From a virus (taxonomy: Duplodnaviria > Heunggongvirae > Uroviricota > Caudoviricetes), in the IMG/VR virus record IMGVR_UViG_2700989363_000006: a stretch of DNA of 8,925 nucleotides. One strand, written 5' to 3'. A program made the position numbers. Below are positions 3,001 to 8,925 of this stretch, piece by piece. The number at the start of each line of letters is the position of its first letter. Position 1 is the first letter of the stretch.

Positions 3001-6000
3001 TGATTATTACTTTTATATCCGCAGTGTGAACACCGTTGGCAAATCGGCATTCGTGGAGGCTGTTGGTCAGCCGAGTGATGATGCATCCGGTTATCTGGAT
3101 TTTTTCAAAGGCGAGATAGGGAAAACCCATCTGGCTCAGGAGCTGTGGACGCAGATTGATAACGATCAGCTTGCGCCTGACCTGGCTGAAATCAGGACGT
3201 CCATTACGGATGTCAGCAATGAAATCACGCAGACCGTCAATAAGAAACTGGAAGACCAGAGTGCGGCAATTCAGCAGATACAGAAGGTTCAGGTTGATAC
3301 AAATAATAACCTGAACAGCATGTGGGCTGTGAAGCTGCAGCAGATGCAGGACGGACGCCTTTATATCGCGGGTATTGGTGCCGGTATTGAGAACACCCCT
3401 GACGGCATGCAGAGTCAGGTGCTGCTGGCGGCGGACAGGATTGCGATGGTTAATCCTGCGAATGGCAACACAAAACCGATGTTTGTTGGTCAGGGCGATC
3501 AGATATTCATGAACGACGTGTTCCTGAAACGCCTGACGGCCCCCACCATTACCAGCGGTGGAAATCCATCGGCATTTTCCCTGACTCCGGACGGAAAGCT
3601 GACCGCTAAAAATGCGGATATCAGTGGCAGTGTGAATGCGAACGCCGGGACGCTCAACAATGTCACGGTAAATGAAAACTGTACGATTAAGGGCATGCTG
3701 GAGGCGACTCAGGTCAGAGGTGACTTCGTTAAAGCTGTATCCAAATCATTTCCGAAACAGGCTGGTACGTGGGGTAACACGGAAACACCAAACGGGACGG
3801 TTACAGTCACCATAAGCGATGATCATAACTTTGACCGCCAGATTATTATTCCGCCCATTATTTTTAACGGTATAGCGTATGACGATCCGGGGAGCGGAAA
3901 TAACCCAGGAGGCACGCGATACACGGGTTATGGTTTTGAAGTTCGCAAAAACGGCGTATTAATCGCATCCAGAGAAACTAAAGGTGCCATTCCCGGTAGT
4001 TACAGTGCAGTTATTGATATGCCTAGTGGTGGTGGTAGCGTCACTCTGGAGTTTAAGATTTTCCAGAAAGGCAATCAGGGGGCAGGCAATATCACCGACT
4101 GTACGGTGATTGTGACCAAAAAAGCGGCTTCCGGCATCAGTATTCGTTGAAATATTTATAACCCCAATAAATGGCGTCAGGAATGACGCCTTTTTTATTG
4201 CAGAAAAGCGAGAGGTAATTATGCGTAAAGTTTGTGCAGCCATTTTGTCCGCAGCCATTTGCCTGGCCGTATCCGGTGCGCCTGCATGGGCGTCTGAACA
4301 TCAGTCCACGCTGAGCGCGGGGTATCTTCATGCCCGGACCAACGTTCCCGGCAGTGATGATCTGAACGGGATTAACGTGAAATACCGTTATGAGTTTACG
4401 GATACGCTGGGGCTGGTGACGTCATTCAGCTATGCAGGAGACAAGAATCGCCAGCTGACCCGTTACAGCGATACCCGCTGGCATGAAGATTCCGTGCGTA
4501 ACCGCTGGTTCAGCGTGATGGCGGGGCCGTCTGTGCGCGTGAATGAATGGTTCAGCGCGTATGCGATGGCGGGTGTGGCTTACAGCCGTGTGTCGACTTT
4601 TTCCGGGGATTATATCCGCGTAACTGACAATAAGGGGAAAACGCACGATGTGCTGACCGGAAGTGATGACGGTCGCCACAGCAACACGTCTCTGGCGCAC
4701 TGACGGTTTCATCGTGGGTGTCGGTTATAAATTCTGATTAGCCAGGTAACACAGTGTTATGACAGCCCGCCGGTTCAGGCGGGCTTTTTTGTGGGGTGAA
4801 TATGGCAGTAAAGATTTCAGGTGTACTGAAAGACGGCACAGGAAAACCGGTACAGAACTGCACAATCCAGCTGAAAGCAAAACGTAACAGCACCACGGTG
4901 GTGGTGAACACGCTGGCCTCAGAAAATCCGGATGAAGCCGGGCGTTACAGCATGGACGTTGAGTACGGTCAGTACAGCGTTATTCTGTTGGTGGAAGGCT
5001 TCCCGCCGTCACATGCCGGGACCATCACCGTGTATGAAGATTCTAAGCCGGGGACGCTGAATGATTTTCTCGGTGCCATGACGGAGGATGATGTCCGACC
5101 GGAGGCACTGCGCCGTTTTGAACTGATGGTGGAAGAGGTGGCGCGTAACGCGTCCGCGGTGGCACAGAACACGGCAGCCGCGAAGAAGTCAGCCAGCGAT
5201 GCCGGCACATCAGCCCGTGAGGCGGCAACCCATGCGACTGATGCTGCAGGCTCAGCACGCGCAGCCAGCACGTCAGCCGGACAGGCCGCGTCGTCGGCTC
5301 AGTCAGCGTCTTCCAGCGCAGGAACGGCATCGACAAAGGCCCGTGAAGCAGCAAAAAGTGCTGCTGCTGCAGAGTCATCAAAAAGCGCGGCAGCTACCAG
5401 CGCCAGTGCCGCGAAAACGTCAGAAACGAATGCCGCAGCATCACAAAAATCGGCAGCCACTTCTGCATCCACAGCGACCACGAAGGCGTCAGAAGCTGCC
5501 ACCTCGGCACGGGGTGCGGCGGCCTCAAAAGAGGCAGCGAAATCTTCAGAAACGAATGCATCATCAAGTGCCAGTAGTGCAGCTTCCTCGGCAACGGCGG
5601 CAGGAAATTCCGCGAAGGCGGCAAAAACGTCCGAGACGAACGCTAAGTCTTCTGAAACAGCAGCGGGACAGAGCGCCTCAGCTGCGGCAGGTTCAAAAAC
5701 AGCGGCTGCATTATCTGCCAGTGCCGCGTCAACAAGTGCCGGGCAGGCCTCAGCCAGTGCCACCGCCGCCGGAAAATCGGCAGAAAGCGCCGCATCATCC
5801 GCTTCAACAGCCACAACGAAGGCTGGCAAAGCCACTGAGCAAGCCACTGCAGCAGCGAGGTCTGCTTCTGCAGCAAAAACCTCTGAAACAAATGCAAAGA
5901 CTTCAGCAGACAATGCTGCTTCCTCTAAGGCGGCAGCCGCATCGTCAGCCAGTTCAGCGGCGTCATCGGCATCATCTGCGTCTGCTTCAAAAGATGAGGC

Positions 6001-8925
6001 GACCAGACAAGCGTCAGCAGCGAAAGGTAGTGCCACGACAGCAACAACGAAAGCATCAGAGGCGGCAGGCAGTGCGACGGCGGCATCTCAGAGCAAAGTT
6101 GCTGCTGAATCCGCGGCAACGCGTGCCGAAACAGCGGCAAAACGGGCAGAGGATATTGCATCCGCCGTGGGGCTTGAGGATGCGAGCACGACGAAAAAGG
6201 GGATAGTACAGCTCAGCAGTGCAACAAACAGCACCAGTGAAAAGCTGGCGGCAACGCCAAAAGCGGTCAAGGCAGCAAATGACAACGCAAATTCACGTCT
6301 GGCGAAAAATCAGAACGGTGCAGATATCCAGGATAAATCAGCTTTTCTGGACAATGTTGGCGTTACTAGCCTGACGTTTATGAAAAACAATGGCGAAATG
6401 CCGGTTGATGCCGACCTGAATACATTTGGTCCCGTTAAGGCTTATCTGGGGATCTGGTCTAAAGCTACCTCAACTAACGCAACACTGGAGAAAAATTTCC
6501 CGGAAGATAATGCTGTCGGTGTGCTTGAGGTTTTTGCTGCCGGCAATTTTGCAGGTACTCAACGCTTTACCACGAGAGACGGCAATGTATACATGCGTAA
6601 ACTCGCCAATAAGTGGAATGGCACTGATGGTCCGTGGGGCGTATGGCGTCACACTCAATCTGCTACCCGCCCTTTGAGTACGACTATAGACCTGAATACG
6701 CTTGGAGCCGCCGAGCATCTTGGTTTATGGCGTAACAGTAGCTCGGCTATAGCTTCATATGAACGCAATTATCCAGAGGAAGGCGGCTTTGCTCAGGGGA
6801 CGCTTGAGATCCTCGAAGGCGGGAATTATGGAAGAACGCAACGTTATACCACTCGCCGTGGAAATATGTATGTCCGCTGCCTTGCGGCAAGCTGGGATGC
6901 ATCAAATCCGCAGTGGGAACCGTGGTTAAGAGTCGGTCATCAGTCAGAGAGTCGTTATTACGAAGGTGATTTGAATGATGTAACCTCACCAGGTATTTAC
7001 AGCGTTACAGGTAAAGCGACCAACGGTCCAGTACTGGACGGAAACGGCGTGACTGTACTCGGCATTCTGGAAGTGTTGAGGCGGTTTGATGGTGTTAATG
7101 TATGGCAGCGTTATACAACTGCCGGAACAGGTACAACCCTTAAAGGCCGCACCTTTGAGCGCGTCTTTACCGGCAGCTCATGGAGCGAATGGCGGGAAGT
7201 CTACACCTCGTATTCACTTCCCCTGAATCTGGGTATCGGCGGTGCTGTGGCAAAGCTCACCAGCCTGGACTGGCAGACCTACGATTTTGTGCCGGGCAGT
7301 CTGATAACCGTTCGGCTTGATAACATGACCAATATTCCCGACGGTATGGACTGGGGCGTCATTGATGGCAACCTGATAAACATCTCAGTCGGTCCGAGTG
7401 ATGATTCTGGTTCGGGACGCTCAATGCATGTATGGCGCAGCACTGTAAGTAAAGCCAACTACCGCTTTTTTATGGTTCGCATTTCAGGAAATCCGGGAAG
7501 CCGCACGATCACGACAAGACGTGTGCCAATTATCGACGAAGCTCAGACATGGATGGCGAAACAGACATTCAGCGGTGGTCTTTCAGGCGAACTATCCGGC
7601 AATGCTGCTACAGCAACAAAGCTGAAAACGGCAAGGACAATTAACGGCGTAAAATTTGACGGCTCGGCAAATATTGAAGCGTTTCCGCCAGGTGTTCCGC
7701 TGCCGTGGCCATCAGATACACCACCTGCAGGTTATGCAATCATGCAGGGGCAGACGTTTGATAAGGCAGCATATCCGAAACTGGCTATTGCCTATCCTTC
7801 AGGTGTTATTCCAGATATGCGCGGCTGGACAATCAAGGGCAAACCCGCCAGTGGCCGGGCCGTATTGTCTCAGGAACAGGACGGCATTAAATCGCACACC
7901 CACAGCGCCAGCGCATCCAGTACGGATTTGGGGACGAAAACCACATCGTCATTTGATTACGGCACTAAATCCACGAATAACACCGGGGCGCATACGCACA
8001 GTCTGAGTGGCTCTACGGGGTCTGCCGGTGTTCATACTCATGGTAATGGTATTCGTTGGCCAGGAGGCGGCGGTTCTGCGTTAGCATTTTATGATGGCGG
8101 TGGGTTCACTTATGTCCAGAATTCACAGTATCAAGTAAGCCCGGAGACTTCTTCCAGTAGATCGTATTATCAACGTATTCAGACACAGTCAGCAGGTGCT
8201 CATACCCACTCGCTGTCTGGTACTGCAGCAAGTTCTGGCGCACATGCACATACTGTAGGTATTGGTGCGCATACGCACTCCGTTGCGATTGGTTCACATG
8301 GACACACCATCACCGTTAACGCTGCGGGTAACGCGGAAAACACCGTCAAAAACATCGCATTTAACTATATTGTGAGGCTTGCATAATGGCATTCAGAATG
8401 AGTGAACAAGCACGGACCATAAAAATTTATAATCTGCTGGCCGGAACTAATGAATTTATTGGTGAAGGTGACGCATATATTCCGCCTCATACAGGTCTGC
8501 CAGCAAACAGTACCGATATTGCACCACCAGATATTCCTGCTGGCTTTGTGGCTGTTTTCAACAGTGATGAGGCATCGTGGCATCTCGTTGAAGACCATCG
8601 GGGTAAAACGGTTTATGACGTAGCGTCAGGGGACGAGTTATTTATTTCTGAACTCGGTCCGTTACCGGAAAATGTTACCTGGTTATCGCCGGAAGGGGAG
8701 TTTCAGAAGTGGAACGGCACAGCCTGGGTGAAGGATACGGAAGCAGAAAAACTGTTCCGGATCCGGGAGGCGGAAGAAACAAAAAACAACCTGATGCAGG
8801 TAGCCAGTGAGCATATTGCGCCGCTTCAGGATGCTGCAGATCTGGAAATTGCAACGGAGGAAGAAAACTCGTTGCTGGAAGCCTGGAAGAAGTATCGGGT
8901 GTTGCTGAACCGTGTTGATACATCA

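Follow-up and report, generated by a model that had tools for sequence, protein, structure and literature searches.

In laboratory lambda (PaPa) a frameshift splits the side tail fiber gene stf into orf-401 and orf-314 and side fibers are lacking, whereas Ur-lambda carries an intact stf; an intact gene is the rule in lambdoid prophages, the PaPa frameshift being a laboratory peculiarity. Rebuilt from the two PaPa frames, Ur-lambda Stf comprises 774 residues, and its collar domain is present in twelve copies, arranged as four trimers that are clamped around the tail where gpV and gpM meet (PMC12617516). A longer class is represented by StfR of the Rac prophage of E. coli K-12 (1120 aa) and by Stf of the Rac-like phage PhiR34_1 (1134 aa), while engineered lambda-P2 side tail fiber (STF) chimeras are built into lambda particles and give better delivery (Brodel et al. 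2024; PMC11338833). Here we describe the stf gene of an 8,925-nucleotide stretch of DNA from a virus of the Caudoviricetes (IMG/VR record IMGVR_UViG_2700989363_000006), hereafter the window, which is an entire 8925-bp draft contig of Shigella sonnei and harbors I, J, lom, stf and the tail fiber assembly gene tfa in that order, all on the + strand, an arrangement matching lambda and PhiR34_1. Judging from sequence, we lean modestly toward the view that positions 4802-8386 represent an intact gene for a long StfR-like side tail fiber, built as a chain of modules of which the middle one was swapped by a double crossover, and belonging to a class that E. coli and Shigella prophages of the lambda type carry after J-lom.

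A listing of open reading frames (ORFs) in the window gave a + strand ORF at 4796..8386 with a GTG start (1196 aa), within which an in-frame ATG at 4802 occupies the position homologous to the lambda stf start. As claimed in the initial annotation, the frame from this ATG to 8386 is uninterrupted, with translation yielding 1194 sense codons, a single terminal stop and zero internal stops; given the base composition of the window, a run of 1194 stop-free codons would be expected by chance at about 7e-24, and the window is devoid of any N or ambiguous base. The further claim that stf abuts tfa also held, with the stf stop overlapping the tfa start (gcaTAATGgca, 8384-8388) and with a downstream frame that matches PF02413 and is 95% identical to lambda Tfa. 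An exact-sequence look-up identified the protein as CST36115.1 / WP_072120530.1, 'side tail fiber protein [Shigella sonnei]'; a comparison of the whole Stf protein with NCBIfam gave no match. The parts of the gene and its chaperone are as follows.

4802-8386, + strand: stf, the whole side tail fiber ORF, 1194 codons plus stop.
4802-5203, + strand: N-terminal collar/attachment domain of Stf, aa 1-134 (PF08400, E 4e-72).
5132-6211, + strand: shaft rich in Ala/Ser/Thr, aa 111-470 (A 37%, S 22%, T 11%).
6212-6376, + strand: conserved hinge, aa 471-525, shared with Mu S and P2-like fibers.
6262-7630, + strand: P2-like (Peduovirus) fiber shaft module, 1349/1369 nt identical to phage vB_EcoM-613R2.
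7634-8383, + strand: T4 gp37-type receptor-binding tip, aa 945-1194, a collar followed by a needle with seven HxH motifs (PDB 2XGF).
8042-8194, + strand: divergent segment between the third and fourth HxH motifs, aa ~1081-1131, a putative specificity head that is unalignable with T4 gp37 and lambda Stf.
8386-8925, + strand: tfa, tail fiber assembly chaperone, first 180 codons (PF02413, E 3e-36).

The locus closely resembles that of Ur-lambda, sharing the order J-lom-stf-tfa and a near-identical lom-stf spacer, terminator hairpin and start. The initial annotation had described one frame leading from a lambda-like N-terminus to a lambda-like C-terminus, and at both termini this was borne out. 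The match to PF08400 ('prophage tail fibre N-terminal') spans profile positions 1-134 of 134; the Ur-lambda Stf collar (PDB 9E7M, chain Ta) matches aa 1-94 (E 2e-51), with 87/94 residues identical over this domain and 120/134 over aa 1-134; and aa 950-1194 are 65% identical to the C-terminus of lambda Stf, with the same HxH needle, albeit with seven HxH motifs here vs. eight in lambda, and an identical C-terminal ending. Up to the motif ATPKAVK (aa 484-490 here, 379-385 in lambda), 324 of 385 Ur-lambda residues (84%) are identical to aa 1-490 here, bar a single insertion of 105 aa (aa 304-408) in the Ala/Ser shaft. Immediately past this motif the two proteins diverge, lambda aa 386-518 being replaced here by an unrelated knob-domain module of ~455 aa, and the window Stf is 420 aa longer than that of Ur-lambda. 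Alignment to Ur-lambda thus confirmed the continuous frame and the homology of the termini but not collinearity over the whole length, as aa ~491-945 (38% of the protein), a region that had gone unseen in the initial annotation, are without a counterpart in lambda Stf. The background it gave on the PaPa split and the intact Ur-lambda gene is correct; however, the PaPa frameshift (between NRKA and PLDS) lies ~10 codons past ATPKAVK, in lambda sequence without a homologue in the window gene, so the PaPa comparison is inapplicable at the frameshift site. On these alignments, the window Stf is a member of the PF08400-led lambdoid Stf family and not an orthologue of the lambda allele.

The window protein belongs to the same long class as StfR and the PhiR34_1 protein, showing 91-92% identity to them over aa 1-525, ungapped and with the 105-aa shaft insertion included, along with the same arrangement of hinge, gp37-like tip and tfa. 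It departs from both in the middle, where the modules are unrelated (aa 526-958 here vs. 528-903 there), and in the tip, which is merely 75% identical. The Ala/Ser shaft displays an AAKTSETNA motif in degenerate form, without making up a true tandem array, and structures of the Mu fiber protein S (PDB 5YVQ/8JU3) align to aa 432-525, i.e. across the hinge. Two other ORFs lie within the GC-rich Ala/Ser-coding stretch, one out of frame on the + strand (5199-6206, 335 aa) and one antisense on the - strand (5299-6036, 245 aa); both are most likely composition artefacts, and the annotated orf206b of lambda, antisense in orf-401, looks like the same phenomenon.

The middle of the protein has its matches outside of the lambdoid phages. 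Over aa ~460-965, the window Stf is 86-98% identical to fibers of P2-like myophages (613R2, URC09213; the 919-aa fiber of NC_070906; E. coli M15 prophage, WP_105265720), with nucleotide identity reaching 100%; for NC_070906, identity is 86% over Stf aa 407-965. At the nucleotide level, the insert is 98.5% identical to P2-like fibers overall and ~100% from ~6500 to 7700, and window positions 6190-6950 are 98.8% identical to P2-like prophages in complete E. coli genomes. Three divergent knob-like beta domains, which begin at aa 538, 630 and 723, and one further beta domain make up the module, and near-identical proteins have been named 'pyocin knob domain-containing' or 'phage tail-collar fiber domain-containing'. 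As in the window, the knob module of the 613R2 fiber is joined to a gp37-like tip. However, P2-like fibers start with PF12571 and are encoded in a contractile-tail baseplate operon, whereas the window Stf starts with the lambda collar and follows J-lom: PF12571, the P2 gpH baseplate-attachment domain, which is the P2-type N-terminus carried by proteins matching the middle module, had no match in the Stf protein, where PF08400 makes up the N-terminus, and the genes upstream of stf are lambda I/J rather than the P2-type baseplate genes gpJ/gpI. An AlphaFold model of aa 520-940 is all-beta and only moderately good (pLDDT 72.6, pTM 0.42); a Foldseek search with this model returned the R1 pyocin fiber (6CL5, E 1e-6, with a TM of only ~0.25) as well as phage receptor-binding proteins and beta-propeller lectins at low TM, lending weak support to predicted knob- or lectin-like folds in the middle module.

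Sliding-window and exact-match nucleotide comparisons were combined into a mosaic map of the gene, in which positions 4801-5300 show 16/500 mismatches that fit neither of the co-resident stf types. The remainder is partitioned as listed, with the P2-like module, given above, lying between the two crossover intervals.

5301-5646: 1008/1009-aa Stf type (E. coli SCU-313, gut contig L016, S. sonnei putative phage-plasmid contigs L017-L020), 343-345/346 nt identical.
5647-6261: 1009-aa Stf type (L016-L020), 615/615 nt identical.
6247-6261, + strand: crossover interval 1, where the lambdoid 1009-aa type gives way to the P2-like type, with 15 nt in common with 613R2.
7631-7719, + strand: crossover interval 2, where the P2-like type returns to the lambdoid 1008/1009-aa type, the two parents being identical over these 89 nt.
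7631-8386: 1008/1009-aa Stf type, 750-755/756 nt identical; for the tip, 753-755/756 nt to SCU-313 and the S. sonnei putative phage-plasmid type.
8387-8925 (tfa): SCU-313 and L017, 535-536/539 nt identical.

Hence, the flanks of the insert resemble a single known type, that of SCU-313 (WP_169062210), of L016 (gut metagenome contig ERZ919562 k127_14069, which carries the 1009-aa type) and of the S. sonnei contigs, with positions 5301-6261 and 7631-8925, tfa included, being 99-100% identical to it in nucleotides (99.5% for 7631-8925 vs. SCU-313 and the S. sonnei type). What differs is the middle, as the segment at aa ~495-880 of the 1009-aa type (P0043), which matches PF21446 and carries collagen-like GNxxT repeats, gives way here to the knob module of the P2-like type. 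L016 has the same length as the window (8925 bp), but it is an unrelated contig and the agreement is a coincidence. Junction 1 sits in the AATPK codons, at the ATPKAVK motif, and with the best P2-like alleles the shared stretch extends over 47 nt (6215-6261); junction 2 falls in a conserved stretch ending in PWPSD. The motifs at the two junctions are classic exchange points of tail fibers. The map makes the gene look like a common 1008/1009-aa stf whose middle module was exchanged in a double crossover. Such a natural event is made plausible by these exchange points, by the fine-grained and natural-looking mosaicism of the other parts of the contig, and by the fact that engineered lambda-P2 STF chimeras are functional (PMC11338833). 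We find it plausible, if falling a little short of probable, that the allele is real and reflects a very recent gene conversion by double crossover between co-resident prophages, one a lambda-like siphophage and the other a P2-like myophage.

Several findings weigh against this reading of the gene: 1) the exact 1194-aa protein is on record from one S. sonnei draft contig only, and tfa is cut by the end of this contig ~14 codons before its expected stop; 2) megablast with 5950-6950, which spans junction 1, found no sequence with at least 80% cover among complete E. coli genomes (5,426), phage records (50,697) or plasmids (72,556); 3) none of the best 120 of 178 proteins matching the middle module carries the PF08400 N-terminus, and in 80 IMG/VR loci classified by tblastn the lambdoid N-terminus and the knob module were mutually exclusive; 4) exact junction-spanning patterns were absent, both those of 100 nt from IMG/VR and those of 86 nt from the JGI metagenomes and GTDB genomes; and 5) complete S. 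sonnei genomes have an stf of 1027 aa, not 1194 aa, at the corresponding locus. The idea that the window is simply the locus of these complete genomes was rejected, being true for positions 1-~5000 only, where the match to complete S. sonnei chromosomes is 99.4% with I and lom identical; from ~5000 their stf diverges, and window positions 6284-7702 have no counterpart in them.

A real, if tentative, possibility is that the gene is an assembly chimera, such that the isolate carried an ordinary lambdoid stf (of 1008/1009 or 1027 aa) together with a separate P2-like fiber gene, and a short-read assembler or gap-filler threaded the P2-like middle into the former, between two stretches common to both genes, to create an in-frame ORF of 1194 codons that does not exist. 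In addition to the absence of this combination from the complete genomes, phages, plasmids, IMG/VR loci and protein-search matches examined, the contig from which the protein is uniquely known is short and ends within repeated prophage genes (K/I and tfa), its flanks are near-exact to one known stf type (615/615 and 755/756 nt) with the 98.5% insert between them, the blocks are matched at ~100% by sequences found together in such genomes, each switch lies within a stretch common to the two parents (as long as 47 nt for junction 1 and 89 nt for junction 2), and other drafts typically break stf at aa ~484-526, which thus behaves as an assembly repeat boundary. However, every allele examined has only 15-47 nt in common at junction 1, which is shorter than the k-mers usual for reads of 76-100 nt and argues mildly against an artefact. 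Furthermore, the differences from the S. sonnei reference elsewhere in the contig are diffuse and look natural, with ~1% single-nucleotide polymorphisms (SNPs) spread evenly in J; the mismatches in 4801-5300 fit neither co-resident type; there are no Ns or gaps in the window; and the S. sonnei label is on none of the best 120 of 178 middle-module proteins, leaving a P2-like donor in this species unproven. Natural exchange at the same motifs is also well documented for tail fibers.

Even if the sequence is genuine, the gene may be a silent relic, i.e. the prophage would be defective or uninducible and no side fibers would be assembled, as with stfR in K-12 Rac; we regard this as unlikely, though far from negligible. 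The initial annotation had concluded from the intact ORF that side fibers are probably made, and this conclusion stands only in part. In its favor are the intact frame, collar, tip, tfa, I and J, and we surmise that, if the sequence is right, nothing in the window argues against a functional fiber, given that the collar, hinge, all HxH motifs, Tfa, I and J appear intact. On the other hand, an intact ORF is no proof of fibers being made, since cryptic Rac (locus L106; NC_000913, 1429049-1432986) keeps intact stfR (1120 codons), 91% identical over aa 1-525, together with intact tfaR, even though its lomR is split by IS5 and its tail genes are reduced to a fragment of the tape-measure gene. Three features of the present locus are in line with a relic: lom is already inactivated by an 83-nt deletion, IS1 and IS fragments directly follow tfa in related S. 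sonnei genomes, and stf lacks its own promoter-like site and lies behind a strong terminator-like hairpin, presumably rendering it dependent on late antitermination. These are countered by the intact I and J of the window, by the integrase and the C-to-J genes for head and tail, which are intact in related complete S. sonnei genomes, by the preservation of every HxH motif and of the chaperone, and by the viability of close relatives such as PhiR34_1 with its 1134-aa Stf. The literature yielded nothing usable on the inducibility of S. sonnei lambdoid prophages.

Two other explanations can be dismissed, namely a repaired lambda stf, given the 774 aa that Ur-lambda Stf comprises and the non-homologous middle 455 aa here, and an expansion of tandem repeats in the Ala/Ser region as the cause of the extra length, as TRF found two tiny arrays only and the N-terminal 506-525 aa align ungapped with SCU-313, PhiR34_1 and K-12 StfR.

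Returning to the gene as an intact, modular stf, the distal part bears on what the fiber may bind. Residues 945-1194 align across the full T4 gp37 tip structure (2XGF, E 3e-79) and match PF07484 and PF03335, with HxH motifs at aa 1032, 1064, 1078, 1134, 1148, 1157 and 1166. The T4 tip has the same collar, the same seven HxH motifs and a gp38-type chaperone gene adjacent to it like tfa; the two differ in the head segment between HxH blocks, which is ~53 aa here vs. ~35 aa in T4 gp37 and not alignable. The equivalent T4 gp37 segment, aa 932-965, is the receptor-specificity domain (PMC9659904). Within the phage collection, the specificity segment of the window was found in full in two unannotated phage records only. 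OmpC, implied as the receptor in the initial annotation, is therefore an unsafe choice: the ~50-aa segment between HxH 3 and 4 differs from those of the OmpC-binding tips of both lambda and T4, so OmpC binding cannot be assumed. The Tfa protein, over its 180 codons, is 95% identical to that of lambda and 99.4% identical to that of SCU-313, and because tip and tfa derive from the same parent, the pair of receptor-binding tip and chaperone has been preserved.

Based on these features, we propose how such a fiber would be made and used. Transcription of stf would come from the late operon, with Q-mediated antitermination allowing read-through of the hairpins flanking lom, Tfa would assist the trimerization of Stf, and the fiber would dock via its N-terminal collar. 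Read from its N-terminus, the protein is a chain of exchangeable modules, with the lambda Stf collar followed by the Ala/Ser shaft, the hinge ending in ATPKAVK, a knob-domain shaft of ~450 aa otherwise found in P2-like myophage fibers only, and the T4 gp37-type tip, with tfa downstream; the tip itself would consist of a collar, an iron-binding HxH needle and the divergent head. Reversible binding of the tip to a primary surface receptor, which may be a porin or LPS, would speed adsorption before J engages its own receptor.

The remaining features of the window lie upstream of stf.

20-592, + strand: tail assembly gene I, 190 aa, GTG start (PF06805).
653-4150, + strand: central tail fiber / tip attachment gene J, 1165 aa, intact, with all six GpJ Pfam domains.
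4173-4190, + strand: terminator-like hairpin followed by a T-run, after J.
4221-4703, + strand: lom, truncated to 160 aa (PF06316 covers positions 1-159 of 199 only).
4764-4785, + strand: terminator-like hairpin of 8 pairs (7 GC), then TTTTTGTGGG, conserved in lambda and PhiR34_1.

The 190-aa I protein is also called in complete S. sonnei genomes, and 600/600 nt are identical to L009. J differs from these genomes by 29 SNPs spread evenly over ~600-3200, even though I and lom are identical, which is unusual in so clonal a species as S. sonnei. The last ~950 nt of J have no similarity to lambda, suggesting that the receptor of the central fiber is probably not LamB. In lom, an 83-nt deletion between CTGGCG direct repeats (point ~4697) causes a frameshift with loss of the last beta-strands; every complete S. 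sonnei genome examined has it, beside the 1165-aa J, and, by its sequence, lom is a pseudogene spanning 4221-4737. The two terminator-like hairpins bracket lom in a moron-like arrangement, the hairpin at 4764-4785 and its T-run ending 11 nt ahead of the stf ATG, and no promoter-like site was found on the + strand ahead of stf. We also found neither an invertase core of the AAACCNNGGTTT type (Gin/Pin/Cin) nor long inverted repeats in stf, the window ending inside tfa; in Rac and PhiR34_1, a pin gene lies downstream of stf/tfa. The contig starts 19 nt 5' of the I start codon, at the K/I overlap, and ends ~14 codons short of the end of tfa; K/I and tfa are multicopy in such genomes, and limits of this kind are thus typical of repeat-bounded short-read contigs.

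The S. sonnei draft contigs L017-L020 harbor a second lambda-type tail locus with a J of 1231-1232 aa, a full-length lom, a 1009-aa stf and tfa. This locus adjoins sopB/parA, which suggests a phage-plasmid. Positions 1-18201 of L019 are palindromic (stf-tfa-sopB-parA followed by parA-sopB-tfa-stf), suggesting either an N15-like linear plasmid prophage with its hairpin telomere or an assembly artefact due to fold-back.

In most respects, the window Stf is an ordinary and routine member of a known, notoriously mosaic fiber family; the collar family, the gp37-type tip and the P2-type shaft are all known, and only the combination of modules may be new, and it is possibly not real. Two cautions apply more broadly, namely that a tail-fiber ORF found on a short draft contig may be a chimera of assembly and that an intact ORF is no evidence of fiber expression. 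If the reading holds true, both parents would still be recognizable at ~100% nucleotide identity, and a lambdoid phage would have gained a knob-domain shaft of ~450 aa not otherwise seen on a lambda collar. The allele would then parallel, in nature, the engineered lambda-P2 STF chimeras, following the same principle of a lambda Stf N-terminal part joined to a P2-type distal part; the designed proteins, however, use the P2 gpH C-terminus with its own tip, whereas the window allele, be it natural or an artefact, has the P2-like shaft only and a gp37/lambda-like tip. A real allele would represent a clean natural case of tail-fiber modules being shuffled across phage morphotypes, with breakpoints narrowed to 15-89 nt, and the motifs at which they lie could inform how chimeric fibers are designed for host-range engineering.

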